From contig JBODTK010000011.1 of assembly GCA_050613775.1 (NCBI GenBank), positions 1,240,001 to 1,304,000 on the forward strand: a stretch of DNA of 64,000 nt, in the 5' to 3' direction. Below, piece after piece: positions 5,231-45,534 of the stretch. The notes under the pieces were generated by a model that was not told where the DNA came from, made no database searches, and saw only the letters and a list, made by a program, of their open reading frames with translations. The stretch comes from Neocallimastix sp. 'constans'. Its lineage: Eukaryota. Made by a program: the position numbers and the translations under genes. Position 1 is the stretch's first letter. Every line of letters begins with the position of its first letter.

Positions 5231-6060
5231 TGTTACGATACAAATAATAAATAAAAAATAAATAAAAAATTAAATAAACTATTAAGATTAATTAATAAAT
5301 AAATAAGAATAAAATATTAAAGTATTAAAATATATAATAAGGAAATTAAATATGTATAAATAACTAAATTATTTAAAATAATGTATTAATTGTATTTATT
5401 TAATATTGTAATAGTAAACAATTAGATATTTTATTATAAATAATTAAAATTATATTTATTATTATTTTATATTTTTATTATAAAATCTTTATTATACTTT
5501 ATTATATTTTTATTATTATCTTATATTAAATATTATATTAAAATTATATTTTATTATATTTTATTATTATAAAATTATTATATTTTTGTTATTATATTTT
5601 TATTATATTTTATATTTTTATTTTTACTCCAATCAAATAAATATTTTAAAGATATAAAAAGAACAAAATAAAACAATACTTTAGTTCTTCCTCTTCTTTC
5701 AACTTTATTTTTTATATTTTTCTTTTAATTTTTCGAGAATGAAATAGTAAATATTTAGAATTAGTATAAATAAATAATTAAATAAATAATTAAATAAAAT
5801 TAAATTGTTCTCTAGTTAAATCGATTAGTTTTGTTTTTGTGTTTTATTATAGTTAAGGATAAAAATAATTTTGGTTAGTTTAAATATTTAAATTTGTTAG
5901 GTAATTTAGTTTTAATTTAGAGATAAATTTTATTAAAATATTTATTTAAGTTATTTATATTAGAATAGTTAAAATAATATTTATTTTGTTAGTGAAAAAT
6001 TAAATTTTTAATTATTAGAATATATTATTTTTTTTTTTAATAATCTTCAATTCTGTACCA
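5231..6060 (+). repeat. 5' LTR of Gypsy-A
   Basis: TG...CA ends. Differs from the 3' LTR by one visible substitution and a T-run length. Confidence 0.95.
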
Positions 6061-6067
6061 TAAATCT

Positions 6068-6085
6068 TGGCGAGCTATGCAGGAC
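6068..6085 (+). promoter_or_regulatory. Primer-binding site, probably tRNA-Arg(ACG) 3' end
   Basis: TGGCGAGCTATGCAGGAC is the complement of ..GTCCTGCATAGCTCG-CCA, which resembles eukaryotic tRNA-Arg(ACG) 3' ends. Confidence 0.7.
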
Positions 6086-7094
6086 ATGAAGATAAAAAAA
6101 TAATATGAAAATAATAATTAAAAATATTAGATAAATAATAAAGTTGTAGAAAAAAAAAAAAATTTGAAATTTAGCCAATAGAATAATTAGAAAATTGAAA
6201 AAAAAAAAAATTAAAATTTAGCCAATAGAATAGTTAGAAAATTGACAAAAAAAAAAAAAAATTTGGATTATAATTAAAGTTGGAAATTTTATTATAAAAT
6301 TATTGGTAATAATAATAAAAAATATATATATATAAAAAATAAAATTTTAGATTATAAATTTAATTTGGAAATTTTATTAATAAAATTATTAGTAATAAAA
6401 AAAAAAAAAAAAAAAAATAAATTAGTAATAAATTATTGAAAATAGTTAGTAGGTAAATAGGGAATTAAATAATTAAATTAAAGTAAAATTTTTGTTAATT
6501 TTGATATTGGAAAGTTTAAATTTTATAATTAAATTTAAAATAAATAGTATATAGTATAAAAAATAAGATTATTAAATACTGATAAAAAAGTATATTTATT
6601 ATTTTCATTCAAAAGAAAAATTAAAACCAAAAATTATAAAGATTTATATACAGTGTGTAAACCGGTTGAAAATTAATTAGTAAAGAATTAGGGTGATTCC
6701 AATTTTTACTAATTAAGGTTTTTAATCGATCTCGTGAGTGCGTGAATACGTCCCAAAGTAATAATTATACTCCCCACGGCACTTTCCGTAGTTTATCAAC
6801 TATCCGAGTGTTGTCAGGGTTTTTGGACAAGATCGAGCACTGGAACAATAATGAACTTATATCACCGAAGGTATAAGGTCCATTTTACAAACCTTTATAA
6901 GAATATAAAAATAAAGTTTTATTATCAATACAGCGAAATAATTAATTCAATAAATAAATAAAATTTTTTTATTCACACAATTTTAATTAATTCAATTTCT
7001 ATTTATTCAATTTCACTTCATTATCAGTTTAATTTAAAAATAATCATCATTCTATATTTAAATTCATAATCAGGAAATTTTCACTTTATATTAT

Positions 7095-7144
<50 letters not shown>

Positions 7145-7311
7145 ATCAATACTTCTAATTAGTCATTCATTAAAAAGTTAATTCAATAAGTTCAGGCAAA
7201 AAATAATAAAAAAAAATATTTATAGGAAATAAAAAATAATCTATAATTAACAAAACAACAAAAACTTATCCACTTATCAATCCATCCATCAATATATTCA
7301 ATCTTATTAAA

Positions 7312-8274
7312 ATGAAAATATTAGAATTAGAAAGTTTACTTCCCCGTCTTAATGAATACGATAGAGATATTGTTTCTTGGTGTGACGAATTCACAAGAAT
7401 CATGTCTTTAGCAAATATCACCAATCCAATGAGTATACACTCCTGGGCAATGGAGTGTGTTGAAGGAAAATTAAGAGGAATAATACAAGACTTATATACA
7501 ATTGAAGATGGTGTTCAAAATTATCCAACAATTCAAGAAATTAAGGACGCAATTGAGAAGGCTTTGGACATAACACCACAAGAAAAATGCAAACGACTTC
7601 AAAAGTTAAGAATTCAGAAAGGAGAAAGCATAAGAAATTTCAATTGGAGATATAAAAAAATGTATAATAATCTCCCAAAGTTTTACCAAACGTTTATTAT
7701 AGTAGAAGATTATGAAGAATCAATTATTTATAGACCCTACGCAAGATCACAAGTAATTACACAAAGATGTTTGGATTTAGAAGATGCATTTGAAGAAGCT
7801 GAACTTGCCGAAAGAGCTGAAGAAAGAAGAAATAACAATAATGAAGTTATAATGACAACATTATATAATAATCATCCATTTTATTACAACAATAATAATT
7901 ACACAGTTAATCCTTACAGACAAGCCAAAACAATAAATTATAATTCCACTTTTAACGGAAGACAAAGTTACATCAAGAAAAATAATTTTAATCAAAGATA
8001 TTACAAAGGAAATGCTGACTTTCAAAATAATTATAATAGAATTCATTTTAATAATGATAAAGTCAATAATTATACAAACAATAATCCAATTACAAGAAAT
8101 GAATCAAACTTTTCTAATAATAATAATATTAATGAAACGAAATCAACTTATAATAATCAAAAAACATGCTATAGATGCGGTCAAAAGGGTCATTATTACA
8201 ATCATTGTCCTTACTCTTTCAAACAACTTGCAGAAATGGAAGAAAAGAATAATAATGAATCTTTAAAATTTTAA
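7312..8274 (+). CDS. gag: Gypsy Gag with CCHC zinc knuckle
   Basis: 320-aa ORF with CYRCGQKGHYYNHC, located after the PBS. Confidence 0.92.
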   Translation: MKILELESLLPRLNEYDRDIVSWCDEFTRIMSLANITNPMSIHSWAMECVEGKLRGIIQDLYTIEDGVQNYPTIQEIKDAIEKALDITPQEKCKRLQKLRIQKGESIRNFNWRYKKMYNNLPKFYQTFIIVEDYEESIIYRPYARSQVITQRCLDLEDAFEEAELAERAEERRNNNNEVIMTTLYNNHPFYYNNNNYTVNPYRQAKTINYNSTFNGRQSYIKKNNFNQRYYKGNADFQNNYNRIHFNNDKVNNYTNNNPITRNESNFSNNNNINETKSTYNNQKTCYRCGQKGHYYNHCPYSFKQLAEMEEKNNNESLKF

Positions 8275-8295
8275 ATGGAAGAAGGAAAACTTCCA
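8262..8295 (+). promoter_or_regulatory. -1 programmed ribosomal frameshift signal (gag-pol)
   Basis: Slippery T TTA AAA in the gag frame, 7-nt spacer, hairpin TGGAAG/CTTCCA. The -1 frame is open into the pol ORF. Confidence 0.8.
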
Positions 8296-11200
8296 ACAAT
8301 CAAACCAAAAATGAAGTTGTTGCTGTTGCCGTAAGAAATAATAAGAAAACAAATAAAGAAAAGCCTTATAGTAAGACTAAAACAAAAACAAATAAAACTA
8401 TAAATACAAAGAATAATCATAATAATGAAGTTGAAAAAATGGAATTAGAAAATGATGAATTACAAACAATTGAAAACAATAATACGAATGCTATTTTTGA
8501 TATCGATAAAAGCAATAGCAATAAAATTCAAACTGAGAATGATATTTCAATATTACCTATTACAACACATTCAACTGAAACTGAAAGACTTAATGAAATT
8601 GACGTTTCAGTTTTAGCACAACAATCTATCAACAAAGCGAAACAAAATGCTAAAAATCAAAAAGAAAAAGAAATCATTGAAGAATCAGAAAATATTATTC
8701 AAGAAACTAATATTAATAAACAAAATAAATTACCAAGTACACAATTAGAAGAAAGAAAAACAAAAAATAATAATACTGATAAAATAGAAAAACACATTAT
8801 GATAATGGATGGACAACCAAAATATGATATAACAAATGATCTCAATAATAAATTTGCAAATATTACATTTCCACAATTATTAGATATTAGTCCAAAATTA
8901 CGAGCGGAATTTATAAAAGCATTGAGGCTGAAAAGCCCTGCAATAAATAAGAAAACTCCTGAAGAAATCATCTTATCAGTAATGGCTAGAGATGATGTAG
9001 CAACAACAGAATGTCGAATTAATAAAGTAAAAGGAATCGCTTTTTTAGATACAGGTGCTAACATAAATTTAGTTACCAAACAATTCTTAAACAAGCTAGG
9101 AAAAATTAAACCAGTGGGATATGTAAAAAATAATATTGTCCAAGTCTTATCAAAAGAAAATGTGTATACAGAGATATATTTATTAAATGTTAATATTGGA
9201 AAGTTAAATTTACACGATATTTTTAGAGTTATTGATAGTAAACATAATTTATTTGATATTTTAATTGGTTATGGAACACTTAAAGATAATAATTTATTTA
9301 TAAACCCAATAAATAATTCTCTATGTCTTATGAAAGAAAATAATTCATGGAAATGTTTAACAAAACTTGGAAAAGAAAATAATGAAGATGTTATTAACGA
9401 TGATGAAGAAGATGAATCAATAAATACAGATGATAAATCTAATTCTGATATTAATAACAATTCTTATTTATACTGCCTTATTAATGAAAATAAAGATGAA
9501 AATAATAATAAATTGTTAGAAAACCATAATGAAGAATTAAATACTATAAATAATAATAATGATAGCAAAGTTAATAATAAAATTGATGAAGATGAAAATA
9601 AAAAGGCGACTTTACTACAAAACATTATAATTGAAATTCCCAATAAAAATAAAAAGAAGGATAGAAAATTATTAAAAGAATTTTCCACTATTTTTGCAAC
9701 AAAAATCGAAGAACTTCAACCGACAAAATTATTACCACACAGAATTCATTTAGTAGATAATGCCAAACCAATAAAACAACGATGTTATAGGCTTTCTAGG
9801 GTTCAAGCTAAAGCACTTAAAGTTGAATTAGAAAAACTTATAAATAACAAGTTAATTGAACCTTCCAATTCTCCCTGGTCCTCTCCAGTTATATTAGTAC
9901 TAAAAAAGAATAAGAAATGGAGATTGTGTGTGGACTTTAGGAAATTAAACACCGTCACAATAAAAGATGCCTATGCATTACCTTTAATCGATGAAATATT
10001 ATTTTCAATTGGAACTGAGGTTAAAGTGTTCACTACAATCGATTTATTTTCTGGTTTTCATCAGATTCCAATGTATAAAGACGATATACCTAAAACAAGT
10101 TTCACCACTATGTATGGCAATTACCAGTTTCGAGTAATGCCTTTTGGATTATGTAATGCTCCCGGAACCTTCCAAAGGGAAATGAATAGGATATTTCTAT
10201 CACTTATTGGAATTTGTATGTTTGTCTACGTTGATGATTTAGTTGTATTTTCTCCTTCTATTGAACAACATATAGAGGATCTCAATAAAGTATTCAACAT
10301 CATTAAAGAAAATAACTTAAAAATTAATTTAGAAAAATGCAACTTCTTCAAAGAAAAAGTCAATTTATTAGGTTATACTTTATCAATTAATGGAATTTCC
10401 CCTATACAAGAAAAAATTCAGGTTATTTTAGAATGGATTCCACCAAGAAATATCACTCAATTACAATCCTTTATTGGTGCAGTCGGCTATTATCGAAAGT
10501 TTATATTCAACTTTGCTAATATTGCTAAACCATTGTTCAAATTATGTAAGAAAGGTGTTAAATTTATATGGGATAAAGAACAAGATGATAGTTTCAATGA
10601 ATTAAAAATTAAGTTAGCTTCTGCACCTATTTTAACTATGCCTAATTTTGATAAACAATTTATTATCCGTACTGACGCTTCTTATGATGGTATTGAAGGA
10701 GTTCTCCTTCAAAAAGATGAAAACAACATTGAAAAACCTATTCATTTTGTAAGTCGCTCTTTAAAGCAGGCGGAGAAGAATTATGCAATAACAGATCTTG
10801 AGGGTACAGCCGCGACTTACTGTGTTACAAAATTTAAGTCTTATATTGCTGGAAATAAGTATGAAACACTTCTTTACACAGACCACAAGCCATTAGTAGG
10901 ATTATTCAAAAACAAAGAAACCAATAATTCTAGGCAAACACGTTGGGTTTTACTTCTTTCGATGTTAAAAGTTAAAGTATTATATGAACCAGGAAAAAAG
11001 AATGTTATAGCAGATGCATTATCCAGACTACATACTGAGCATAATAAAATTATAAGTACCATAACAAGTGAAATAGGTGAAAATAATTCAAATAATTTAC
11101 TTTCTTGTTATAAAGACAAATTCATAGTAATTAATAATGAAGAATATTTTAAAGATGATCGTAAACAAGACGAAAAAGTTGATTTAATATTAAAAGCACA

Positions 11201-12239
11201 TAAAATTGGTCACGAAGGTGTATTTAAAACCTATAATAGACTTAAACGTGACTATCATTAGACTAATATGATTCTTGATGTTAAGTATATTGTAAAAACC
11301 TGTGAAAGATGCCAATTATTTAGACCCCAGTCATTTAACTATCAAACAGAAGACATTGCTACTAAACCAGGATTACCGTTTTCAAGAGTTGGTTTAGATA
11401 TTATAGGCCCACTCCCAACAACAAAGAAAGGAAATAAATATATATTAGTCTTAGTTGATTATCTAACAAAATGGGTTGAAGCAAAACCAAAACAAAATAT
11501 TGAATCCGATGATGTAATTGAATTTTTATCTGATATTTTTGCTCGATTTGGAATACCTGAAGTAATCGTAACTGATAATGGTCCACAATTCTGCTCCGAT
11601 AAAACAAAAGCATTTCTTGATTTATATGGCGTTTTCGTTCAATTTGTTGCTACTTATCATCCTGAGTCAAATGGTGAAGTTGAAAATCGCAATAAAGAAA
11701 TTGGAAAATACTTAAGATTATTATGCAACAAAAACACTTCTATATGGGATGAAATATTACCAAGTGCGTTATGGGCCTTACGTACTTGTAAAAATGAAAC
11801 AACAAAATTTTCAAGTTTTGAATTGTTGTATGGTCGTCGTGACCTTCAACCATTTGAATTAATGTTGAACTTAGACAAAAAGGAAAATTATGAAAGCGAA
11901 GATGAATTTTTAATTAGAAGGTTTACTACTCATTATAAATGGATAAAAGAAGCCATAAGCAATATTTAAACTGCCAATAAAATATGGGAAGATAGAAGAA
12001 AACAAGTTAAAAGACTTAAAGCAGAATATAAACCTGGTGACTTAGTATTAGTTAAATATATAAACAGAAGAAAACTTGATCCTTATTTCTTAGGACCAAT
12101 GAAAATAGTTAAAAATCAATTTAACACAGTAACGCTTTGTGATCCAGTTACTAATGAAATAGCCGAAAGAAATGTGCATTTAAAGAATATCGTTCCGTAT
12201 AGATTATGTGAAATTGAGACTTCAAGGGACGAAGTCTGA
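8262..12239 (+). pseudogene. pol: Gypsy Pol (protease, RT, RNase H, integrase) with two in-frame stops
   Basis: FLDTGA, WRLCVDFR, MPFGLCNAP, YVDD, RTDAS, HHCC and DDE integrase motifs. TAG at 11259-11261 (expected W) and TAA at 11967-11969; the frame continues to TGA at 12239. Confidence 0.93.
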
Positions 12240-12256
12240 TCTTAGGGGTGGCATCA

Positions 12257-13084
12257 TGTTACGATACAAATAATAAATAAAAAATAAATAAAAAATTAAA
12301 TAAACTATTAAGATTAATTAATAAATAAATAAGAATAAAATATTAAAGTATTAAAATATATAATAAGGAAATTAAATATGTATAAATAACTAAATTATTT
12401 AAAATAATGTATTAATTGTATTTATTTAATATTGTAATAGTAAACAATTAGATATTTTATTATAAATAATTAAAATTATATTTATTATTATTTTATATTT
12501 TTATTATAAAATCTTTATTATACTTTATTATATTTTTATTATTATCTTATATTAAATATTATATTAAAATTATATTTTATTATATTTTATTATTATAAAA
12601 TTATTATATTTTTGTTATTATATTTTTATTATATTTTATATTTTTATTTTTACTCCAATCAAATAAATGTTTTAAAGATATAAAAAGAACAAAATAAAAC
12701 AATACTTTAGTTCTTCCTCTTCTTTCAACTTTATTTTTATATTTTTCTTTTAATTTTTCGAGAATGAAATAGTAAATATTTAGAATTAGTATAAATAAAT
12801 AATTAAATAAATAATTAAATAAAATTAAATTGTTCTCTAGTTAAATCGATTAGTTTTGTTTTTGTGTTTTATTATAGTTAAGGATAAAAATAATTTTGGT
12901 TAGTTTAAATATTTAAATTTGTTAGGTAATTTAGTTTTAATTTAGAGATAAATTTTATTAAAATATTTATTTAAGTTATTTATATTAGAATAGTTAAAAT
13001 AATATTTATTTTGTTAGTGAAAAATTAAATTTTTAATTATTAGAATATATTATTTTTTTTTTAATAATCTTCAATTCTGTACCA
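12257..13084 (+). repeat. 3' LTR of Gypsy-A
   Basis: Direct repeat of 5231-6060, preceded by the PPT. Confidence 0.95.
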
Positions 13085-13090
13085 ATTTTG

Positions 13091-14111
13091 TGTAAGAAAT
13101 CATAATTATTCAATAATGAATAATTAATATTTCTTATAATTAATGAAAAATAATTAATAATTTATAATTATTTATAAAATAATAATTATTTTTAAAAAAT
13201 ATTTATTTAAATAATAATTAATATATTCATTGATTTTAACTTATAAATTTATTTAATAGTTATATTTTCATATATTGATTTAAATTTATTTACATATTAT
13301 AATTTATACATTTATATAAATAATATAAAATTTATTTACTTATTATTATTATTCATTTAAATAGAATTTTTACAAAAAATTATGTAAATTTGTATTTAAT
13401 ATTTTACCATAAAAATATTAGTTATTTTAATTAAAATGAATTATGTATTTTATAATGTATTATAAACTATAAATGTATCTAATCTATCATATTATCTAAT
13501 CTTTATTTTTTAAATAAAAAAAAAAAAAAAAAAAAAAAAAATCTTTTTTTTTATTAATTCCTATCCTATCAATATTTAATATTTTATAATTAATTAGAAA
13601 ATCGGTAATTAATGTTTTTCCTAACAAATAGGTTTTCTTTAATTATACGATGATCAATATGATTAGAATATTGATCGAAAAACTATTTAGGTTTTTCTTC
13701 TAATCTTTTCCTAAATAGATTTTTTGTTAAGATTAGAAAATAAATTTATTTAACCGATTAATTTTTTAAAAAATATAAATAGGACTCTTGAATTCTCTTT
13801 GAGAAATCAAGAGTTATTATTTTAAGAAAATATAATAAATAATAACAAATAAAATAAATTTTTTATTTATATATCAAAAAAACTGTTATTAATCATAAAA
13901 GGTTTTTTTTTTTTAAAGAATATTTTCAACTACTATTCTGCCGTTGCTTGGTTATTGTTTGTTATATTTACTTATAATAAACTCTGTATAATTAAGTATA
14001 ATTTTTATTTTTTTAATTTTATTTTCTCAATTTTAATATTATATAAAAATAATATTAAAATTGTAGATAATAGTTATATTAATTAATTTTAGTTTTAGTA
14101 TAGCTATTACA
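13091..14111 (+). mobile_element. Solo LTR, Gypsy-B (TGTAAG) family
   Basis: TGTAAG...TTACA with 5-bp TSD TTTTG on both sides; core homologous to the LTR at 15969-16841. Confidence 0.88.
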
Positions 14112-14769
14112 TTTTGTGATAAATAATAATAATATATATTAAGAAATAGTAAAAGATTTTATAATATTTTAAATATTAAAATAATTAAATAGTAATAACT
14201 TAATAATAATCTTATTCATAATATTAAATAATTATAATAATTTTTATTATTATAATAATATTATTTAATAATAATACTTATATACATATGATTGGAAAAT
14301 ATAGTTACACCAACTATAATAATAATATAAATATAAAATTTTTTATATGGAATAATTAGTTCTATATAAATTAATTTATAAAATTTTTGGGAAATAATTA
14401 TGAAATTTATTAAGAGAATTTATTTAGAAAAATAATGAATTATAACAATTAAAAATATTTCTCAACGTTGTATAATCAACTATATAAATATTAAATAAAA
14501 ATTATTATTATAACAAATATATAAAGTTATAAACTATATTATTTATATTATAGTATTTAACTATTTTAATTATTTATAAAAAAATTATAATATTTAATAT
14601 ATAGATTAAATATTATATAAATTTTTAATAAAACATTTTTTTTTTTAAAATAATTAAGTAAATTTAAATATTAAATATCGGTAAAACTTGTTAAAACAAA
14701 ACAAGGTAAAACGATATAAAATAAGTTTAAGAAAATAAAATAAATAATACCTTAAACTTATTATTTGTG

Positions 14770-16841
14770 TGTAAGAATCTATAATTATTTGCTAACAAAT
14801 AATTATATTTTCTTAGTTAAGTTATTATAATTATAACTTTATGGCGTACTTCACTTTCAAAGGCGTATTATTATTCCTTCCAGTCTCAGGGCTAGACTTT
14901 TAAAGTCTTTCCATGATGCACCCACTAGTGGCCATCAAGGGGTAGATAGGACCTTTGAAAAACTCAGAAGGAACTACTGGTGGCCTAATATGAAAAAAGA
15001 TATTTCAAATTATGTGGCTTCTTGTGATGTTTGTTGTAGAAATAAAATCCGTCGTCATAAACCTTATGGTAAACTAATACCACTTCCTACTCCTACAAAA
15101 CCCTGGGAAGTTATTGGCGTCGATTTTATTGTTTCATTGCCTTCTTCACAAGATTGCACTTGTATCATGGTTGTTTCTGATCATTTAACCAAAATGATTC
15201 ATTTAGTACCCTGCTCCGATGTTCCCTCTGCCGATTTAACTGCTAAGCTCTTACTTTTCCAAGTCTTTAAGTATCATGGTTTTCCTAAAGTGATTGTGTC
15301 TGATCATGGTTCCCAATTCTCTTCTCAATTTTGGACTTCGTTGTGCGATGCTATTCGTGCTAAACCAAGACTTGCTACTGCTCACCACCAACAATCAAAT
15401 GGTCAGGTTGAACGGGCTAATGCTGTAATAGAACAATATCTTCGCTGCTATTGTTCTTCTGCTCAAAACGAATGGTGTTTCTACCTCCCTTTATGTGAAA
15501 TGTCCTACAACAACTCCATTCACAAATCAATAGCTCAAACTCCTTTTCATGCTAACTATGGATTTGACCCAAATTGTGTTATTGATTCACCACCGATTCT
15601 GCTAAAAGATAGTGCTTCTGTTCTTACTAGGGATTGGTCTTCACATTTCAATGCCCTTCGTCAACATTTAGTTAAAGCCAAAGAAGATTTTAAGAAATAT
15701 GCTGACAATAAAAAATCTGTAGGACCTGACTTTAAGGTAAATGATTTGGTAATGCTTAGAAGATACTACTTTACGAATGAACCCTCTAGAAAATTATCCA
15801 CTCAATATATTGGACCTTTTAAAATCATCGAGAAAAGGGAAAGAATGAATTACCGTTTGGAACTTCCAGAGAACTTACATCTCCATCCGGTATTTCATAT
15901 CTCACAATTGGAACCATATACTAAAAGAAATGAAGACTTAATGGAAACATCATAATTAAACAGAGCAATGTAAGAATCTATAATTATTTGCTAACAAATA
16001 ATTATATTTTCTTAGTTAAGTTATTATAATTATAACTTTATTTAATTACATATAATATTTATTAAATTTATTTAATTTAATTTTAAATATTCATTAATTT
16101 AACAAAATTTATTTAATTAATTTTAAATAATATATTTACAATATGTTAAATTCTCTACTGTAACTAATGTATTTTGTATTGTATTTTATTCTGTATTTTA
16201 TAATGCATTCTGTATTATATAATGTATTCTGTATTTTATTAACTATTTAATTTTATATTTTTAATATAAGGATAAATTATATGATCGAAATATCTTTTAT
16301 TATTTTATTCTTTTATTTTCGATCATTAGATTGGAAAATCGGTTAATTAAGATTTTTTCCAATTACTTTTTAGAAGTAATCGGTTTTACTTAATTAATGC
16401 GATGATCGATATGGATAGAATATCGATCAAAAACTTATCTAGGTTTTTCTATCTAATCTTTTCCTAGATAAGAGATTTGTTAAGATTAGAAAACCCTTTC
16501 TTATTTAACCTTATTTTCATAAAAAAATATAAATAAGGCTCTTGAGTTCTCTTTGAGAAATCAAGAGTTATTATTATAAAAAACATAGTTATAATAGTAA
16601 CAATTTTATATTTTTAACTTTAATAAATTAATAAAATATTTTATTCAAAAAACATATTTTAAAATCAAATTTATACAAACAATTCTTCTCTTACTTCTCG
16701 TGTTATTATTATAATTAATTTTATAATAAACTCTAAAGGTAAAAAAAATTTATCTTATTTTATTTTCTCAACTTAATGAATTAGTCGTTAAGTTGTAGTC
16801 AATAATTCTATTTTGAGTTAGTTATTAATAGAATTATTACA
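14770..16841 (+). mobile_element. Internally deleted Ty3/Gypsy element (Gypsy-B)
   Basis: First ~72 bp of the LTR (14770-14841) fused directly to integrase coding sequence; complete 3' LTR 15969-16841; flanks TTGTG/TTGTA. Confidence 0.9.
14840..15955 (+). pseudogene. Gypsy (Tf2/chromovirus-like) integrase fragment without chromodomain
   Basis: Frame open upstream of the called ATG: HDAPTSGHQG...YWWPNM...CDVC, then VDF...SDHGSQF...NGQVER, GPF motif, HPVFHISQLEPY, then stop. Confidence 0.9.
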
Positions 16842-16842
16842 T

Positions 16843-17525
16843 TGTATAATAATCTATTTATAATATACTAACTATAACTAGATTATTAATATTTTAAGAT
16901 ATAAAAATTTATACTTAACTTTATATAGAGTTTATTATAAACACTAAATATTGATATAAACAAAAAGACTTTATTTCTTTTAATTTATTATATAGCATTA
17001 TATAATAATAACTCTAATTTCTTTAATCAAAGAAATTTGAGTTCTTTTATACTTTTTTATTTATAATTATTTTAATAGATGAAATTATTAAATAGATGTA
17101 ATTATTAAATAAATAAAATAGATAAGATAAAGTTAACAAATCAAATAAAGGTATCTAATCTTAACAAATTGATATTCAGGAAAAGATTAGTAGAAAAACC
17201 TGAATAACTTCGATTAATATTCTAATATATTAATCATCGTATTAATTAATAAAAACCCAATCATAATAATATTGGGGAAAAAATTAATTAACCGATTACT
17301 AAAATCTTATAAATTATCAACTAATTGAAATAATAAAATATAAATAATATTTTTAAGTAATTAATATATTATAACAAATTTGTTTACATTATTTTTCAAT
17401 ATATATTAATTTGGATAAATTAATATATTTTTTACATGTTAATAAATATTGAAATATAAATGAAATATAAATTAATTAAATAAGAAGATAGATTATTTTA
17501 TAAGAAATAAATCTATATTCTTACA
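16843..17525 (-). mobile_element. Diverged solo LTR, Gypsy-B family
   Basis: Minus strand starts TGTAAGAATA and carries the same structured core (17150-17297). Left boundary approximate; no clear TSD. Confidence 0.75.
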
Positions 17526-18077: not shown

Positions 18078-21000
18078 ATGGATTCTAAAAATAATGAGTC
18101 CTCTAACTCATCAAACAATATAGCTAGTACCAGTAGTAATTCAAGAGAAAAAGAAACCTTGGATAATTCTGAACTGGTAAATAAAGGTTTACAAAAACTT
18201 TTAGAAGCTATAAACAACAATAATCATAATAATCTTGAACAAATAACAAACGCATTTATAAAAACCATTGAAAATATGAAAATAAGAAGTAATAATGAAG
18301 ACTATAATAGTATCAATGTAAATACTAAAGGTGATGAAGGAACAAATAATGTTCCTTTTCACATTAAAAACTTTCATTTAACTTCTATTAATTTTCAACA
18401 ATGGTTTAAATCTTTAGTACATCACCTTATTTCAACGGATTTAATAAATTTCATTGAAGTCCAAAAGGAAACTAAATCAATGAATCAACTGGAAATTAAA
18501 AAGGATAATAAAACCCAGTCAATAATTGAATATAGTCTTGATGAAGAGGGAAATGATGTACTAAAAGGATGTAAAACAGCGTTTAAAATGATGAGTAGAT
18601 TAAAAGAAAGATATTATCAAACAGGTCAATACTATATTGATAATATCGATAAACAAATTAAAGGCTTAAAAATTAAAGATAATGATTTTTTAAGCTATAT
18701 ACATAAAATGGACGAATTATATAACCTTAGAAAAACAGAATGTGATAAATTAGATAAAGAATCACTAAATGATATTTATAAAATAACTCACATTTTTAAA
18801 GAACTTATAAATACCAGAATACATCCTTTATTTGTCTATTTGGTTGATTGCAATTCTTATGACGAATTTAAAGAAAAAATGTACAAATTAAATTCACTGA
18901 TGGTAACAATAAAGAATTTAACTGATAATAATAATTTCGATAAATATAATAACAATATAAACAGAGTTCAAAAGGGTAAGTTACCATACAACTTCAACTT
19001 TGATAAAAATACAAATCAAAGAGAAAAGGTCCATATAGAAGACAACTATTGTTACATATGTGAAAAATATGGACATATAACTAAGAATTGCTATAAAATT
19101 AAAACCAACCAAAGCAATTCAAGTAATAATAAGATAAATAAAGGTAGAAAAAGAAAATTAAAGTTAAAAACTAAAAAATATAATAAAATATTTAAATCAT
19201 GTAATGTTGAAAATAAAATTAAAAAACACACTAATCAACATTCTGATTCTGATTCAGATGATATAAAATCATTAAATTTTAATTCTAATTATGTCTCTTG
19301 TTCTCTTGCAAAAAATGATTTCATAAAAGGCCACAACAACAAGAGAAAATTCGAAGTTATAAATACCTCCAAAAATCCGAATATATCCTCTACCTCTTGG
19401 ATTATTGATAGTGGAACTGCTATCAATTTAATAAAAGACTGTAATAAATTAACAAATGTTAAGAAAATTGAAGAAAGAACAATTACTTATGCTAATGGAA
19501 CTACTGAAATTATAAAATATGTTGGAATGTACAAAGGGGAATATAAAAATAAGATTTTTTCCATACCAAATGTTTATTTCGCATCGAATATAAAAAATAA
19601 TTTAATTTTGACAAACCATATATTAAATATGGGTTTTGAACTAAACATTAGAAAAATTAGAAATAAGAAGGTACTAACTATCACAAAGAATAATAAATAT
19701 ATTATTAATCTCAACTCAAACAATGAAGGTTTATTTGTAATGAAATCAAAAGATTTACAAACTAACAATGATGTAAATTATGTTGACGGGTATAGATTTC
19801 TAGTAAATCATATTGAACATAACCTTTGGCATGCCAGACTTGGCCATTTTGTAAATAAGGAATTAGAAAGTTATGTTAAGGATCATACCCAAAATAAGCA
19901 CATTTGTAAACAATGCAAAATTAGTAAAATGAAAAGGGCAAAGTTCAACACGTCAACAAATAAAACAACAAATCCTTTGGAATTGGTCCACACAGATGTC
20001 GTAGGCAAGCTCAAAATGTCGAACAGTAGATTCAAATTTTATGTTACCTTTTTAGACGATTATTCGAGAAAATGTTTGGTATATCCCATTAAAGCTAAAA
20101 ATGAAGTCTTAGGAAAATTTGTGGATTTTTACAAATTAATGAAAAATGTCTATGGATATCATATTAAGATACTGAAGTCTGATAGAGGTCTCGAATATAT
20201 AAACAACAATTTTTCTAATTTTGTTCATGAAAATGGTATAAAATTTATCCATTCTGAAGCTGGCGCACAAGAACAAAATGGTAAAGCGGAACGCTTAAAC
20301 CAAACATTAAATAATTGCGCCAAAACGTTATTAAATTGGGCAAAACTTCCTCTTTGTTTCTGGGATGAGGCTATCGTTGTAGCTGCAAAATTATACAACT
20401 TAAATCCTCATCAAGGAAATAATAATTTAGTTCCGGACGATGTCTTCTTCAATAAATTGTCAGATATTTCAAACCTAAAAGTTTTCGGATGCAAAGTAGC
20501 GTTCTTCAATAATTATAAAAAGGATAAATACGAAAATAACGCAAAGCAAGGTATTTTTTTGGGTTATTCTAATGATTCAACTGGGTACAAGATTTTAGAT
20601 TTAAACACTAACTCTATCATCACTGCTAGGGATGTCTATTTTTTTGAAAATCTGCCAGGCACTATTAATACTCCTTTTTTTACTAATAAAATTATTAGTT
20701 CACTACTGGAAACATCCACTTCATCAATTGAGGGGGAAAGGTCGTCAAGCATAATTAATACTGATAAAACAGGACAATTGCATAAAGTGGATCACAACGA
20801 AGATACCAAAAATGATTTACATATTCCAGTTGAAAAGTCGGATGATGGAAAATTATCAATAAATAATAAAGAGAATAATATATTATGTGTTAAAACAAAT
20901 GTTCCTCAAACATATAAACAAGCGTTAGAATCAGCTGATCGTGAAAAATGGAAAATAGCGATAGCAAAAGAATTTAAAAATATTTATGATAATCATGTCA

Positions 21001-22412
21001 CAACAGTTGTTGACAGTAGTGAAATACCTAAAGATGCAAATATACTTGATGGTACATGGGTATTCACGATTAAAGATGACGGAACAAGAAAAGCCAGGTT
21101 TGTAATCAGAGGCTTCAAACAAATTAAAGGGAAGGATTTCATTGACACATATGCTCCGACTTTACAATCTGATAGTTTAAGAATTACTATCGCCATAGCA
21201 TCTATAATGAATTGGAATATAATGCAAATCGATATAAAAGCAGCATACCTTAATGCTGAATTGAAAGAAAAAATATTTGTAAAAATTCCAGAAGGAGACA
21301 AGAATTTTAATAAAGAGAAATACTGGTTATTAAATAAAGCTTTGTACGGCTTTAAACAAAGCAGAAGAGCTGGGAATAAGGAAATTACAAAATTTCTAAA
21401 AAGTATAGGATTACATCAATTAGATACTGACGAATGTATATTTTGTAAGTATAATAAGAATCATAAATTATATGCAATTTTAAATTTATACGTTGATGAC
21501 ATATTATTAACCGGTAATGAAGATGAAATTAAAGAAATTATCAACAAAATTAAAAGAAAATACAAAATATCTAAAGAATCAATTGCTAATAAAATCATTG
21601 GTATTAATATTATGAAAGCTAAAAAGGGCTATAAAATTAATCAAAAGGATTATATTGATAAAATCGTCAAAAAATACATGATGCATAAAACTAAAAGAAT
21701 CTATACTCCATGCCATAGGATAACTATGGAACAAAGGGAAAATTCCAGGTTTGTAGATGTAACCAGTTACAAATCACTTTTAGGAGCATTACTTTATATC
21801 GCTGTTAAAACGAGACCGGATATAGCATTCTCTGTAAATCAACTTGCCAGAAACTGTGAAAAGCCAACGAAAGCTGATTACGATTCTGCTATGATGACCT
21901 TGCAATACTTAAAGTCAATAAAAGAAAAGTCAATTTACTATAATGGTAATGAAACTTTAGTTGGATATTCTGACTCAGACTGGGGAGGTGATGAATCAAC
22001 AAGAAGATCAACAAGTGGTTTTATATTCCTCTTGGGAAATGCTCCAATAGCTTGGAAATCACAAACACAAAAATGTGTTACATTATCTTCTGCCGAAGCA
22101 GAATGTGTTAGTCTCATTGAATGCACTAAACATGCATTAAAATTAAGAAAAATCATAAAAGAAATTACTAACAAAGAATTAAATATAAAGATCTTTGTAG
22201 ATAATAATGCATGCAAAGCTATGGTTGAAAGTGAAAATGCCAGAGGCAGAATAAAACATATGGACATAAAGTACAAATTCATTTACGAAAATATAACAAA
22301 AAACAAAATAAATTTGGAAAAGATCGAGTCCAATAAAATGGCAGCAGATCCACTTACTAAATGTATTTCCGGACCAAAAATGTCCATCTATTCTAAATAC
22401 ATATTCGATTAA
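18078..22412 (+). CDS. Copia Gag-Pol polyprotein (Gag CCHC, PR, IN, RT, RNase H), 1444 aa
   Basis: CYICEKYGHITKNC, WIIDSGT, LWHARLGH, HTD..D..E, KARFV, YVDD, YSDSDW, ADPLTK. The frame is open but several conserved residues are substituted. Confidence 0.95.
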   Translation: MDSKNNESSNSSNNIASTSSNSREKETLDNSELVNKGLQKLLEAINNNNHNNLEQITNAFIKTIENMKIRSNNEDYNSINVNTKGDEGTNNVPFHIKNFHLTSINFQQWFKSLVHHLISTDLINFIEVQKETKSMNQLEIKKDNKTQSIIEYSLDEEGNDVLKGCKTAFKMMSRLKERYYQTGQYYIDNIDKQIKGLKIKDNDFLSYIHKMDELYNLRKTECDKLDKESLNDIYKITHIFKELINTRIHPLFVYLVDCNSYDEFKEKMYKLNSLMVTIKNLTDNNNFDKYNNNINRVQKGKLPYNFNFDKNTNQREKVHIEDNYCYICEKYGHITKNCYKIKTNQSNSSNNKINKGRKRKLKLKTKKYNKIFKSCNVENKIKKHTNQHSDSDSDDIKSLNFNSNYVSCSLAKNDFIKGHNNKRKFEVINTSKNPNISSTSWIIDSGTAINLIKDCNKLTNVKKIEERTITYANGTTEIIKYVGMYKGEYKNKIFSIPNVYFASNIKNNLILTNHILNMGFELNIRKIRNKKVLTITKNNKYIINLNSNNEGLFVMKSKDLQTNNDVNYVDGYRFLVNHIEHNLWHARLGHFVNKELESYVKDHTQNKHICKQCKISKMKRAKFNTSTNKTTNPLELVHTDVVGKLKMSNSRFKFYVTFLDDYSRKCLVYPIKAKNEVLGKFVDFYKLMKNVYGYHIKILKSDRGLEYINNNFSNFVHENGIKFIHSEAGAQEQNGKAERLNQTLNNCAKTLLNWAKLPLCFWDEAIVVAAKLYNLNPHQGNNNLVPDDVFFNKLSDISNLKVFGCKVAFFNNYKKDKYENNAKQGIFLGYSNDSTGYKILDLNTNSIITARDVYFFENLPGTINTPFFTNKIISSLLETSTSSIEGERSSSIINTDKTGQLHKVDHNEDTKNDLHIPVEKSDDGKLSINNKENNILCVKTNVPQTYKQALESADREKWKIAIAKEFKNIYDNHVTTVVDSSEIPKDANILDGTWVFTIKDDGTRKARFVIRGFKQIKGKDFIDTYAPTLQSDSLRITIAIASIMNWNIMQIDIKAAYLNAELKEKIFVKIPEGDKNFNKEKYWLLNKALYGFKQSRRAGNKEITKFLKSIGLHQLDTDECIFCKYNKNHKLYAILNLYVDDILLTGNEDEIKEIINKIKRKYKISKESIANKIIGINIMKAKKGYKINQKDYIDKIVKKYMMHKTKRIYTPCHRITMEQRENSRFVDVTSYKSLLGALLYIAVKTRPDIAFSVNQLARNCEKPTKADYDSAMMTLQYLKSIKEKSIYYNGNETLVGYSDSDWGGDESTRRSTSGFIFLLGNAPIAWKSQTQKCVTLSSAEAECVSLIECTKHALKLRKIIKEITNKELNIKIFVDNNACKAMVESENARGRIKHMDIKYKFIYENITKNKINLEKIESNKMAADPLTKCISGPKMSIYSKYIFD

Positions 22413-22994: not shown

Positions 22995-25900
22995 TTAATT
23001 AATTATTTTCGTTAATAAGGTATTTCTAAATTTGTCCATTAAAGAGTTATTTAAGTATTTTGTAAAACCATCAGCAAGGTTGTCCTTTGATTTTATGTAT
23101 TTTAATTTTATAATTTTCTTATTTACTAAATCCCTAATATGATGATACCTAATGTCAATGTGTTTTGATTTCGGATTTATTGATTGATTTTCACTATTAT
23201 ATATTGTTGCTTTATTGTCTACGAAAATTGTTATTTCTTTGATATTTATGTTTAATTCGTTTAATAAATTTTTGTACCATAATGAATGTTTTGCGCATTC
23301 ACTTAAGCTATAATATTCAGCTTCTGTAGTTGAGGTGGAGACACAGTGCTGTAATTTGGAATACCAACTTGTTGGAGTGTCCCCCATTAACATGAGAAAT
23401 CCAGAAGTTGATTTTCTTGTATTTGGATCGCCAGCAAAATCGGCATCTACAAATATTTTTAATTTCATTCCCTTTTCTATTTTGATTCCATAATTTTTTG
23501 TATATTTGAGATATCTAAAAATTTTTAAAACATTCATCCAATCTTCTAAGTTGGGATCTGTTGATTTTCTTGAAGCTCTGCTAACAGCAAAAAGAATATC
23601 AGGACGGGTACAGATAGCTAAATATAGTAAACTTCCTATTGCACTTCGGTATTTTGTTTCATTGAATTTTTTGGTTCTTAGATTTGGATTTACTAATGGC
23701 GTAAGATTTTTTACTGGTGTTAAGTTGTTAATATCGAATTTATTTAAAATGTCATTTATGTATCTACCTTGATGTAAAATGTAACCATTTAAAGTTTTGG
23801 TAAATTTTATTCCAATTACAAATTCAACATCCCCAATATCCTTTATATTGAACTTCCTTTGAATAGATTGTTTTACTTTATTTATTTCTTGATTTGTTCC
23901 TGCAATGAGAATGTCATCAACGTATACTGAGAGAATACAAACTATTTCCTTCCCATTGTTTAATTTAATATAAACACATGGCTCACTTTTTATTCTCTTG
24001 AAACCTATTTTTATCAATTCTTCATTGAGTTTATCATTCCATTCTTTACCAGCTTGTTTTAAGCCGTAAAGAGCTTTGTGAAGTTCCCAAAAAGATTTTC
24101 CGTAAGATGGATGACCCTCTGGTGCTTTCATGTATATATGCTCATTTAATGGTGCATTTAAATAAGCTGAATTGATGTCTATTTGAACAATATTGAAATT
24201 TTTCTGAACCGCGATAACTGTAATGATTCGAACTGTATCCTGTTTTAGTGTTGGTGCAAATGTTTCTTTGTAGTCGATACCGTACTGTTGAGTGTATCCT
24301 TTTGCAACTAATCTTGCCTTTCTTTTAATAACATTTCCGTTTGCATCTCTTTTATACTTAAATACCCATCGTGATGATATTACGTTGGATCCTGATGGTA
24401 CTGTTTTAACAATTTTATAAACATCAAGATTTTTCATGATTTCTAATTCTTTCTTGATTGCGTTTAGCCATTCTATTTTATCTTTAAATTTGAATATATC
24501 CTTGAAGTTATATGGTTCAATTAATGTATTTTCATTAATTTTCATGTCTGATTCATCTGTGTTGTTTATTTTTTTTCTTTTATTTGAATTAATTATAAAA
24601 TTGTTTAAATTCCTTTTTGAATTTTTAGGATGTTGATAGTTTTGATTTTTCTCTTTATTTGTGTTATATTTATTATTAATGTTGTTAATTTCTTGTTGGT
24701 TTTCTGTTGATATTTTGTTGTTATCATTTTCAGTCGCATTTTTAATTTCATTATTAATATTGATTGAATTATTATTGAAATTGTGATCATTTGAATTTAA
24801 CAATTCCTGATTGAAAGTATTGTTACTATTATTGATTGTATTATTGTCAATAGTATTGTTGTTATTTTCATTATTATTATTTTGATTACTGTTATTAATG
24901 ATAATTTTTTCATTATTATTTTGATAATTGGGATAATATTTACGACTAATTCTATTTGTTTTAGAAGATTTATTTTTGGATTGATTTTTAATATTTTTAT
25001 TCTGGTTAATATTTCTATTCTGGTTAAAATTTATTGTAGCATTTCTTTCATTGATAATATCTGTTATTTTATTATTATAATCATCAATTTCATTACGGTA
25101 TCTAAGTCGGTTTAGACAGTTGCTCTCCCTGAATTTGTTATTGGAATGAATACGATTTAAAAAGGAATTTCCTGGTTCATTTTCCATAAATTCTACAGTG
25201 CGAGATTGGATGATTTTATTATTGATAACATCAAGAATTTTGTAAGTGGAAGGATGATCGCAATATCCAAGAAAAATACCAGGATGTGAATTATTGTCAA
25301 ATTTTGATCTTAGTTCCTTTGGCACAAAGAAATAGACTCTACATCCGAATACTTTAAATGTATTGTAATCTACAGGCTTATTATAAAATACTTCAAATGG
25401 AATTTTGTTTTGAATGCCTTGATGGGGAAGTCGATTATGAATATAGTTTGCAGTATCAACAGCAAACTCCCAAAAATCATGACTGAGTTTAGCGTCGTTA
25501 AGAAGTGATTTTGAAGAAGCAATGAGTATACCATTAAATCTTTCAGCCCTTCCATTTTGAGAAGGGTTATAAGGAACTGAAAACTGATGATGAATTCCAT
25601 TTTCTTCACAGAAAATTTGAAATTTACTATTTTGAAATTCCTTCCCATTATCAGACCGAATTGCTTTGATATTTATATTTAATGAATTATAAATTTTATT
25701 ATACCAAATGATAAATTTGTTAAATACATCATTTTTATTTTCAGTAAAGATGACCCATCCATATCTAGAGTAGTCATCTAAAATTGTAAGGAAATACTTA
25801 TTGTTATTTATTGAAGGATTAACAGGTCCTACAAGATCTAGATGTATTAATTCTAAAATTTGTTTAGTCTTATTGGTAGATGGTTTAAATGACTTATTTT

Positions 25901-27593
25901 TTAATTTGGAATTAATACATACTGGGCATTTTAATTTTAGATTGATATTACTTAATTTATTTTTTATTTTAGAAATATCATAATGACCTAGGCGTCTATG
26001 CCAAAGGTCTATTACTTGTTGGTTATTTGATTCTGTATAATTGATTTCGTTATGTTTTGTTGAATTTAAATTTGTTTGGTGTTTGGAAGTGAAAATTTGA
26101 TATGTATTTTTATCATTAGATAAAGATTTATAAATTCTATTTCCATTATTATCATAAATTAATGCTTGTGGGGAGTTGTCATAATTATTGAATATTACTT
26201 TATAATTTTGAGAAATTAATTGATTGATTGAAATTAAGTTTCTCTTAATATATCTTGAATAATAAACATTTCTTAAAATGAATTTGTTGTTGTTAATGAA
26301 TCCTACAAAATCGCCACAAAATTCAGATAATACTTCTTTACCATTCGCTAGTAAAATTTTTGTTTTACATTTTTTAACGTTAGTAAGAAATTTTATGTCA
26401 TTAATAGTAATGATTGATGCACCTGAATCTAAAATCCAAACTATGAAGTTATTATTATGTATATTACTATTTTCGTGATTTTTATTATTTATTCTTTCTA
26501 AACAATTAATTTCGATTGCATTGTCAGAGTTATAATCTTTAGAAAAATCTTCTAAGTAATCGTCTTTATAGTTGTTGTAATTGCTTATTGAATATAAATG
26601 CTTGTTATTAATTTTACTTTTATTATATTTTTTTGTTTAATTTTCTTCGAATTTTCATTGATTTATTTTCATTGTTTTGATTCAAGAGCTTATTTCTTTT
26701 ATATTTATAACATTCCTTTTTGTAGTGGCCGTATTTTCCACATAAGAAACATTTTCCATTTTTTCTTCCTCTTATTTTTAAATACTTATTATTTTGTTTA
26801 TTTTTGTTTTCAGTTTGTAAATTAAAAATATTTTTTGCGTTTTCTTCTTGAAGTTTTCTTTCCTTGATGTTCGAGAAAAGAATATCTGGTATTATTCTTT
26901 TTACATAATTGCAACATTTTATCCATTCATTATTGTACTGGAAAACATTTATCCACCTTAGATTTTCAGGTAAGACTCTATTCAGAATCCCTACCTTTAC
27001 ACTATCACTCATGTCTGTATCGATGATTTCCAATTCATCGATCATATTTTGAAGTGTTGCAAGGAAGATATGTATGTCATCATCTGTGGTAAATTTCAAT
27101 CTGTTTAATTTATTTCGTAATAGCATTTTTTGATGCTCTTCTCCTAAAGTAAAGGAATCTTGAAGGAAGTTCCACATTTCGAAGGCGGTCTTACTATGGC
27201 TTTTTATTATTTCTTTCGTTTTCTTTCCCACGCTATTATTAATTATCCATTTGACCATGATGTCATTCTTGATATCTGTTTGGGTTGTCCCAATATCGTA
27301 AACAAGAGAATTATTAAATTTATCTTTAATGTACTTATCTAAATCTTCTTTAATATCCTTCTTTCTCAATTTTTTTACTTTTGGTAAACTAACTATTCAT
27401 CTAGATTATTGATGATTAAGAGGTCCAATACGTTAGTTTTCCAATCTTGGAAGTTTTCAACCGTTAATTCGGTAACATGATTGAAATTCTCGGAGTAATT
27501 GAAAGAGATTCCTTTAGCGAAGAAATTACTTTCTGATTCGGGAATTTCGATGATTTGGTTTCTAGAATTACTTCTTGAATTGTTTCTGCTCAT
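22995..27593 (-). pseudogene. Copia-B Gag-Pol with two 1-nt frameshifts
   Basis: Gag pieces 27593-27393 and 27369-26623 (CFLCGKYGHYKKEC). The pol frame is open from 26636 to 22995 (WILDSGAS, LWHRRLGH, HLD, YVDD, ADGFTK); the ORF track shows only its 3' part because no start codon occurs before 25325. Confidence 0.93.
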
Positions 27594-35935: not shown

Positions 35936-36597
35936 GGCAGCAAACTTGTTTCATCTTTATTAATTAAATATTTGATAAAATACATGTAATAAAATAATAA
36001 AAAAAAAGATAAAAAAATAAACAAAAAATAAAACACTAAATAAAATAAAATAATGGTATAATATATTCTAGTTTCATTTAATTAATATTTGTAAGACTTC
36101 ACAAGGGCATTATTATACTGAAGTATAATAATTAATTTTGACTTCGCAATGTTAATCCTAATTTCAAGATACAAAATTATGATCTTCATTGGTTGCGCTA
36201 GCCCTGCTGGCCTGTCTTACTGTATCTTCAGCATTGACGCTCTTGGTAGTAGTAGTATGATTTGATTTGAACCTATTGAACAAAGACCATTGCTGACCAA
36301 TAGCAATAGGTATAATCGATTGGAGAAGTGCCGCAGTAACCACTAAGAACGGAGTATCAGAATAAGCACCTGATTTCATCTGGCACTTAAATAGATCCTC
36401 CCATTCCCTTGTACTGTTACTAATACTTCGACCTCCAAGAAGGAAATTAAACACTTTTTCACACACACTAGAATCAACATACACATTATTTTCAATACTA
36501 TTACTAACATTACTAATAATACTATTACTAATATTACTAAAACTAATATTACTATTACTATTATTACTATTTCTATTATTACTATTACTATTATAAC

Positions 36598-36666
<69 letters not shown>

Positions 36667-41164: not shown

Positions 41165-41165
<1 letters not shown>
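35922..41165 (-). mobile_element. Near full-length non-LTR retrotransposon (APE-RT LINE), decayed (copy 1)
   Basis: Poly(A) tail at 35922-35932; APE motifs (SWNTNG, CFQET, GDFN, IDH, SDH); RT motifs (GVRQGCPLSP, FADD); C-terminal CPCC..H..C; frameshifts and a ~200-bp deletion near 36855; 5' end approximate. Confidence 0.92.
39855..40035. repeat. (TTGAAC)n-type hexamer repeat, Ser-rich linker in the LINE ORF
   Basis: Reads AGT TCA (Ser-Ser) repeats on the minus strand. Confidence 0.8.
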
Positions 41166-41220
<55 letters not shown>

Positions 41221-41221
41221 A

Positions 41222-41259
<38 letters not shown>

Positions 41260-41310
41260 TATTATACTTTCTTTAAAAAAAAGAATTAAAAAACAAAATA
41301 TTACTATCTT

Positions 41311-45499: not shown

Positions 45500-45502
45500 T
45501 TT

Positions 45503-45504
<2 letters not shown>

Positions 45505-45534
<30 letters not shown>

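Follow-up and report, generated by a model that had tools for sequence, protein, structure and literature searches.

A conserved hairpin with a U-rich internal loop in an LTR of a Ty3/gypsy-type retrotransposon of Neocallimastix: a candidate poly(A) clamp

Introduction

Does a retrotransposon of Neocallimastix sp. 'constans' carry an RNA hairpin that clamps its own poly(A) tail? The question is raised by a stretch of 64,000 nucleotides of contig JBODTK010000011.1 (here called the window, and numbered from its first letter), in which a reading of the sequence alone had noticed a U-rich internal loop closed by CC and GG within a long terminal repeat (LTR), and had likened it to an ENE. An ENE is described as a stem-loop with a U-rich internal loop beside G-C pairs that allow A-minor contacts (PMC7583470). 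About 200 such motifs are reported as predicted, mostly in plants and fungi and strongly tied to LTR retrotransposons (PMC12501189). Among the literature matches listed, no paper joins the Neocallimastigomycota with a triple helix or an ENE. The hairpin, HP1, is analysed here together with its host element, its neighbouring structures and its copies.

The host element

The window is extremely AT-rich, with a GC content of 8–30% per 2 kb, and the Pfam domains of its open reading frames (ORFs) mark it as consisting mostly of nested retroelements. These include an intact Ty3/gypsy-type element at 5231-13084, whose 830-bp LTRs (5231-6060 and 12257-13084) are 99.6% identical, copia-type ORFs at 18078-22412 and 22995-27369 (Pfam), and repeated non-LTR units with an endonuclease and a reverse transcriptase, which at 36-48 kb surround a tRNA-Ser gene.

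The LTR that contains HP1, here called copy B, occupies 15969-16841 on the plus strand. It has the termini TGTAA...TTACA and begins 13 nt past the stop codon of an integrase ORF (14990-15955, plus strand), in which Pfam identifies an rve core (PF00665, 2.7e-8) and an SH3 domain of the Tf2-1 type (PF24626, 1.1e-18). Relatives of this integrase contain Ty3/gypsy RNase H and integrase zinc domains, the closest being JGI, ENA and Logan proteins; a query with the integrase protein found no relative among viral contigs. Further upstream, at 14770-14842 on the plus strand, the first 73 nt of a 5' LTR remain, 100% identical to the start of copy B and joined directly to the integrase zinc-finger region. 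The locus therefore has the features of a Ty3/gypsy-type LTR, namely a direct repeat around pol, TG...CA ends, and a start just past the integrase stop. On the basis of the adjacent integrase ORF, the termini and the identical 73-nt remnant, copy B is identified as the 3' LTR of a Ty3/gypsy-type element with an internal deletion, and the plus strand as its sense strand. Contigs of other runs part from the window sequence at 16841/16843, and in other runs the pol sequence runs on upstream of 14841. The flanking 5-mers agree at only four of five positions. The earlier description of HP1 as part of an LTR module was thus correct, copy B being an LTR that lies behind an integrase ORF and has TGTAA...TTACA termini. 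In the intact Ty3/gypsy element nearby, neither LTR (5231-6060 or 12257-13084) has the module, as judged by self-BLAST and by the covariance model discussed below.

The hairpin HP1

HP1 lies at 16338-16403 on the plus strand. It comprises the hairpin originally noted at 16343-16397, whose letters and fold were as first described, together with a basal AUCG/CGAU. The lower stem, UUAAUUAAG/CUUAAUUAA, is 14 bp long once AUCG/CGAU is included. Above it is an internal loop, of which the 5' strand (16352-16358) is an A followed by a U tract (16353-16358), and the 3' strand (16384-16388) is four U's (16384-16387) followed by an A. The loop is closed by the upper stem-loop (16359-16383), which opens with CC (16359-16360) paired to GG (16382-16383). 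RNAfold returns the identical fold with the addition of AUCG/CGAU, its energy lying between -16.6 and -17.7 kcal/mol and its z score between -4.0 and -4.6, an energy matched by none of 200 shuffles.

The same architecture is found in five sequences, comprising four copies in the window (A to D) and one relative from outside it (L002). Each of the five folds singly into a lower stem, an internal loop rich in U's and an upper stem closed by G-C pairs, with z scores of -2.85 to -7.24. The loop has five or six U's facing four or five in all five copies, and the tracts are unpaired in both RNAfold and RNAalifold. The 5' tract of copy B is U6, and that of A, C and L002 is U5; on the 3' strand copy C alone has five U's, the other four copies having four. 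The upper closure is of two to three G-C pairs, its CC and GG unchanged in all five.

The upper stem behind this closure is much more variable. It is CCAAUUACUU/AAGUAAUCGG in copy B, where nine of ten positions are paired and one is an A.C mismatch, CCAAUUACUU/AAGUAAUUGG in copy D, CCUA/UAGG in copy A, CCCAAU/AUUGGG in copy C and CCCGAU/AUCGGG in L002. Over four lineages, therefore, both its sequence and its length (4 to 10 bp) vary while pairing is kept, and the single folds of the five copies bear out the original remark that the stem differs between copies but stays paired. The lower stem is A-U rich near the U loop, where it has at most one G-C pair: this adjoins the loop in copy A, is one mismatch or bulge away from it in B, D and L002, and is missing from C.

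Neighbouring structures and the position of HP1 in the LTR

HP1 does not stand alone. A second hairpin, HP2 (16404-16428, plus strand), abuts its base with no linker and has a stem of 9 bp. It is followed by a linker of five A's (16429-16433, plus strand), reduced to two in copy C, and then by HP3 (16434-16490, plus strand). The first stem of HP3, S1, pairs 16434-16443 with 16463-16472. The HP3 loop at 16452-16460 is complementary to 16482-16490, giving a predicted H-type pseudoknot (helix S2), with loops that are again U-rich (U5CUA and UU). HP3 also has invariant U5 and U4 runs of its own, adjoining GG and CC.

Two further signals are kept in copies A, B, D and L002. One is a conserved TATAAATA at 16528-16535 (plus strand), presumed to be the TATA box of the LTR promoter, which lies 125 nt downstream of HP1 and has no variant among those listed from other runs; it is followed by a conserved hairpin at 16539-16567. 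The other is an AATAAA at 16725-16730 (plus strand), within TTATAATAAACTCT, presumed to be the poly(A) signal. It comes about 340 nt after the U loop and about 190 nt beyond TATAAATA, is followed by a U-rich stretch, and is kept within a region that is otherwise only 55-56% identical. If TATAAATA is the promoter and AATAAA the poly(A) signal, then HP1 would be part of U3, with about 350 nt between it and the tail. The sequence-only reading had placed HP1 upstream of the LTR TATA box and in U3: its position stands, given the conserved TATAAATA downstream, while the assignment to U3 is one that we infer. It is worth adding that the module lies 40-190 nt upstream of the TATA box, in a zone where promoter elements also lie, an observation that speaks against a role as a clamp.

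Copies of the repeat

Self-BLAST of the window identified four diverged copies of one repeat of approximately 0.9-1.1 kb, 68-76% identical. Besides copy B these are copy A (13182-14274, plus strand), copy C, a fragment (17352-17143, minus strand), and copy D (35844-34713, minus strand). All three were found where the first reading had put further copies of the hairpin, two of them on the minus strand. In copy A the module is at 13601-13737, with HP1 at 13601-13651 (plus strand; 133 bits with the covariance model); in the LTR fragment C it is at 17154-17296, with HP1 at 17236-17296 (minus strand; 132.7 bits); and in copy D it is at 35257-35411, with HP1 at 35346-35411 (minus strand; 171.6 bits). 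Beyond these, the model, built from five copies, detected no other copy in the window; its sixth match is at the level of chance (9.1 bits, E 8.2).

The fifth sequence, L002, is the one LTR relative found outside, in a metagenome scan whose query motif came from the pseudoknot beside HP1 rather than from HP1 itself. It has AUUGGUUA/UAAUCAAU in place of the palindromic UUAAUUAA arms, and the stem is still paired. Since the stem persists in L002 without the palindrome, it is not merely a repeated palindrome. A match to the same pseudoknot pattern among viral contigs (L001) proved to be a chance match inside a phage ORF, and a looser version of the pattern matched nothing in genome contigs or viral contigs. 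A sequence beside the L002 LTR that looks like a tRNA by eye was recognised by neither ARAGORN nor Rfam.

Chance and conservation

In DNA of this composition, U-rich loops might be expected by chance. The pattern TTTTTCC N4-34 GGTTTT has four matches in the window against 0.44 expected, and none of 100 shuffles reaches four; these four are homologous copies of one repeat and so count as a single independent occurrence. A stricter descriptor, which specifies the U tracts and both stems, has one or more matches in 16 out of 100 block shuffles that preserve composition, and recovers just two of the four real copies. A lone instance of the layout is thus within chance in AT-rich DNA. What exceeds chance is its conservation with compensatory change.

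The five sequences (A, B, C, D and L002) were aligned with MAFFT, and a covariance model was then built and the sequences realigned to it. When the HP1 lower stem, HP2, HP3-S1 and the pseudoknot helix are taken together, 96.7% of cells are paired, and 14 of the 42 pairs have changed on both sides, compared to 5.1 ± 1.6 in shuffles (none of 500 reaching the observed number) and one to three in slid controls. Given an alignment that had been fitted to the model, and no more than about four lineages that are independent, these counts are supportive rather than a formal test. The upper stem of HP1 is omitted from the 42 pairs, as both MAFFT and the model alignment misplace it in copies A and L002. 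The HP1 lower stem contributes 14 pairs, six of them with changes on both sides and 95.7% of cells paired; HP2 has nine pairs, three with changes on both sides and 100% of cells paired; and HP3-S1 has ten pairs, five with changes on both sides. Of the nine S2 pairs, eight never vary and one is unpaired in copy C, with no compensatory change, so that the pseudoknot helix is supported by its conservation only. Independently, RNAalifold arrives at the same helices, with the U-tract columns open, and gives 36 pairs of which 16 are compensatory.

The module is a conserved island within the LTR. Its identity is 88% between B and D and 70-71% when compared to A, whereas the upstream U3 has 54-67% and R/U5 55-56%. 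The changes also point to one strand: there are seven G.U cells on the sense strand and one A.C cell, in copy B, that would favour the antisense, and in four of the five copies the sense strand folds more stably (for L002, -21.9 versus -11.5 kcal/mol antisense). On these observations it is highly probable that the module is a real structured RNA element of the sense strand.

Variants in related contigs

The sequence is present in, among others, metatranscriptomes of animal faeces, and three faecal metatranscriptome runs carry the module. Contigs from four further runs were placed on 16250-16600 at a likeness of at least 80%, their numbers being 14, 6, 5122 and 3268; only copies resembling B and D can be placed at this threshold. 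The RNA-library material consists of short unitig-like contigs, from which ends, strand and transcription are not readable, and no poly(A)-tailed loose end was present among the contig matches listed.

In the two large runs, many positions of HP1 vary. The A before the U tract (16352) is variant in about 50% of cases, and the apical loop (16369, 16372 and 16373) in 55-92%; the bulge at 16399 is variant in 26%. At the edges of the 5' tract, one U fewer is present at 16353 in 12-15%, and the last U (16358) is replaced by C in 20-28%. At the top of the upper stem, 16368 T>C is found in 6-10%. Changes in the lower stem preserve its pairing: 16398 T>C (16-23%) replaces a G.U pair by G-C, and 16344 T>C together with 16396 A>G replaces U-A by C-G, these last two changes apparently being in one X2 contig, as suggested by their equal depth figure.

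Among the variants listed for the 5122 and 3268 contigs, none falls in 16354-16357, the CC, the GG, the 3' U4 or HP2, although absence from such a listing is not proof of identity. The U's of HP1 thus behave as paired positions do, unlike the other unpaired positions. The sequence-only reading had named a lack of U-tract conservation across the family as a refutation; the five aligned copies and these contigs, again among the variants listed, do not show such a lack.

Possible functions of the module

A search of Rfam 15 found no family at its gathering score anywhere in the module; Rfam may hold no ENE model. On 16200-16620, with E up to 10, it gave four matches to bacterial sRNAs or other ncRNAs (E 2.4-7.1), all far below gathering, and none that was tRNA-like.

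We hypothesise that HP1 is a single-domain ENE-type clamp for the poly(A) tail of the element. By analogy with known ENEs this is the best single explanation, and we put it forward tentatively, as a reading that falls a little short of an even chance. From its place in U3, HP1 would be carried by the transcript from the 3' LTR only, where it would enter the 3' UTR about 350 nt before the poly(A) site. The tail would then fold back, its A's pairing with the 3' U4 strand and forming Hoogsteen pairs with the 5' strand of five or six U's; about four U.A-U triples would result, their upper end locked by the CC/GG pairs. Such a clamp may make deadenylation slower and genomic RNA more abundant, as has been shown for the ENE of Arabidopsis Copia93/Evade. 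The ENE reading was the central claim of the sequence-only reading, and is borne out in part. The layout, the sense strand, the LTR retrotransposon host and the fixed U tracts and CC/GG agree with it, while the four 3' U's, a lower stem with no or one G-C pair and the lack of any Rfam match do not.

The next explanation after the clamp, possible but rather doubtful, is that HP1, HP2 and the HP3 pseudoknot form one 3'-UTR module with another job. It would bind Gag/nucleocapsid or a host protein, and serve in export, packaging or reverse transcription, with the U.U-rich loop as a docking site for protein or RNA. In yeast Ty3, the primer-binding site is bipartite and has its 3' half in U3 sequences. 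That the three structures are contiguous and conserved as one block, with the base of HP1 directly abutting HP2, fits this explanation, as do the invariant U5/U4 of HP3 beside GG/CC, which suggest a shared ligand other than the tail. The U4 strand and the A-U-rich lower stem of HP1 also deviate from the description of ENEs in PMC7583470; the same description nevertheless makes U tracts on both strands with a G-C closure the combination that defines an ENE. No candidate partner was found, and the module matched no known RNA family in Rfam. The sequence-only reading had claimed that HP1 works with the pseudoknot, the evidence for this being their adjacency. One form of such cooperation would make the block of about 150 nt a composite device for handling poly(A), novel in architecture: a minimal clamp with a 5x4 U loop, stacked on HP2, beside a pseudoknot whose invariant GG-U5/U4-CC runs form a second A-binding or triple-helix surface. 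Clamp and pseudoknot would jointly do the job of the two domains of a plant double-domain ENE (dENE), with the pseudoknot helix replacing the second stem. We regard this as decidedly improbable.

Two explanations depend on where transcription starts or on whether the RNA matters at all. If the start were upstream of the module, the module would be in R and so at both RNA ends, as a leader or terminal-repeat structure like the TAR and poly(A) hairpins of retroviruses. TATA-like strings are indeed everywhere here, for example around 16262-16271, but the sole TATA-like box kept across all full copies is that at 16528-16535, downstream of the module, and the conserved AATAAA is a further 190 nt downstream, so we consider a place in R unlikely. 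It would be compatible with poly(A) binding at the 3' copy. Alternatively, the block could act as DNA, as a U3 promoter or enhancer with palindromic protein sites such as TTAATTAA and ATCGAT, the hairpins being incidental. Its distance of 40-190 nt upstream of the conserved TATA box, the tandem TGTATTTTAT-like repeats upstream of it and the palindromic lower-stem arms of the window copies would suit such an element; against this, compensatory changes alter the sequence and keep the pairing, the stem survives the loss of the palindrome in L002, the asymmetry between G.U and A.C points to one transcribed strand, and the length of the upper stem ranges from 4 to 10 bp. A role purely as DNA is accordingly very improbable.

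If HP1 does clamp poly(A), the range of transposon ENEs would come to include a very AT-rich eukaryote, apparently associated with the gut, and a family of Ty3/gypsy type whose abundance in some public runs is very high. It would follow that a clamp can be short, with one strand offering four U's and a lower stem rich in A-U, a point of relevance to searches for ENEs. Should HP1 not bind poly(A), the block remains a well-supported and unexplained structured RNA module of a retrotransposon 3' UTR.

Comparison with known systems

The loop of the KSHV PAN ENE is flanked by CC...GG. Its structure is described as having five U.A-U triples, along with three A-minor triples that involve G-C pairs in the lower stem (PMC7583470). 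HP1 resembles it, as so described, in having a loop that is U-rich on both strands, a C-G/G-C closure above the loop, and a presumed poly(A) site downstream. It differs in its 3' strand of four U's and in its A-U-rich lower stem. With four 3' U's in four of the five copies, at most four contiguous U.A-U triples could form there. The hosts differ too: PAN is a viral lncRNA, whereas HP1 belongs to a retrotransposon and is about 350 nt from the presumed poly(A) site.

The triple helix of MALAT1 and MEN-beta is described as needing an A-rich tract that the genome encodes, together with a tRNA-like signal for processing (PMC7583470). HP1 shares with these RNAs a stem-loop with a U-rich internal loop near the presumed RNA 3' end; unlike the tract so described, the nearest A run to HP1 is the A5 at 16429-16433, at its base and far from the loop. 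This run was considered as a third strand in cis and rejected: copy C does not retain it, and 14 bp separate its start from the loop.

HP1 also has a likeness to the ENEs of plant and fungal transposons, here compared through descriptions in citing papers. The predicted examples are put at above 200, many of them in plant, fungal and slime-mould transposons, and most of those in plants are said to be double-domain (PMC7583470); no paper on an ENE in a Dictyostelium retrotransposon was present among the literature matches listed. Some ENEs are reported to be embedded in LTRs (PMC13541005). HP1 is like these descriptions in its LTR retrotransposon host and its position in the LTR. It is unlike most of the plant examples described in having one U-rich loop: all five copies have a single internal loop, and the second pair of U runs sits in a separate hairpin, HP3, so that HP1 is not a dENE.

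The ENE of Arabidopsis Copia93/Evade is described as lying upstream of the entire 3' LTR and still being functional; its flanking G-C pairs are essential, its U-rich tracts are kept as fold-back internal loops, and it protects against deadenylation by CCR4a and raises the level of genomic RNA (PMC12501189). HP1 agrees with that description in belonging to an LTR retrotransposon, in presenting its U tracts as an internal loop with adjoining G-C pairs, and in its presumed position far upstream of the tail. It differs in that its two tracts lie inside a putative Ty3/gypsy-type U3 and are followed by a hairpin and a pseudoknot. If HP1 is an ENE, then it is of a kind already known, to which it adds a further member.

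Structures accompanying the U-loop hairpin

An H-type pseudoknot is predicted 3′ of the ENE-like U-loop hairpin (HP1) and the short hairpin HP2 that follows it. In copy B of the LTR family it occupies positions 16434-16490, and equivalent structures are predicted at 13686-13737, at 17154-17208 and 35257-35313 (both on the minus strand), and at 1194-1246 of L002, a contig from outside the window with a related LTR. The stem of the copy B pseudoknot has 10 bp, with five compensatory pairs across the copies, and the segment AAGAUUAGA, located 21 nt downstream, is complementary to the loop segment UCUAAUCUU. The pseudoknot loops carry runs of U5 and U4 beside GG/CC, and these are unchanged in every copy. 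By analogy with telomerase-type pseudoknots, the U-rich loop 1 of the predicted fold may occupy the major groove of helix 2.

A conserved hairpin, CUCUUGA...UCAAGAG, is found on the other side of the TATA box, at 16539-16567 and at about 1285-1315 of L002, its first base lying 4 nt past the box. Copies A, B and D and L002 all preserve the stem. Among the variants listed for contigs of public sequencing runs, those within the hairpin are mainly located in the loop (16546, and a rare one at 16555). The hairpin may represent a leader structure, similar to TAR; alternatively, it may be a palindrome of the DNA itself, located at the start site.

Immediately 5′ of HP1 there is a further hairpin, GAUCGAAA...UUUCGAUC, which has a U-rich loop of 26 nt and is present only in copies B and D (16282-16328, and 35421-35467 on the minus strand). 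Its arm may resemble the T-arm region of initiator tRNA.

The LTR family reaches extreme abundance in two large public runs, X20 and X22, in which 5122 and 3268 contigs respectively were matched to 16250-16600. The summed word depth over this interval reaches about 1e5, and is highest over HP2 and over the hairpin behind the TATA box.

Genomic setting

Copy B belongs to an internally deleted element (14770-16841), in which the 5′ LTR is reduced to its first 73 nt, with the integrase zinc-finger region following directly. The 5′ LTR remnant is 100% identical to the 3′ LTR, and the flanking 5-mers are TTGTG and TTGTA. This looks like the product of template switching in the course of reverse transcription, or of a deletion following a recent insertion. 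Separately, one contig of run X1 stops at 15967, 2 bases ahead of the LTR start, and continues into sequencing-adapter letters. It may derive from molecules terminating at the border between polypurine tract and U3, a tentative reading of a single contig.

A full-length Ty3/gypsy-type element of a different family is found at 5231-13084, with genes for gag (7312-8274), PR-RT-RNase H (8439-11261) and integrase (11268-11969). Its 830-bp LTRs, from both of which the U-loop module is absent, are 99.6% identical, and the element is apparently young. Beside copy D there is an ORF (33341-33886, minus strand) that encodes a FLYWCH zinc-finger domain (5e-7). Finally, the region 36000-48000 contains tandemly repeated non-LTR retrotransposon units with endonuclease and RT ORFs, the repeats being 96-100% identical and spaced about 6.7 and 2.98 kb. 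These units lie on both sides of a tRNA-Ser(GCU) gene (41311-41392), an arrangement reminiscent of tRNA-targeted elements.
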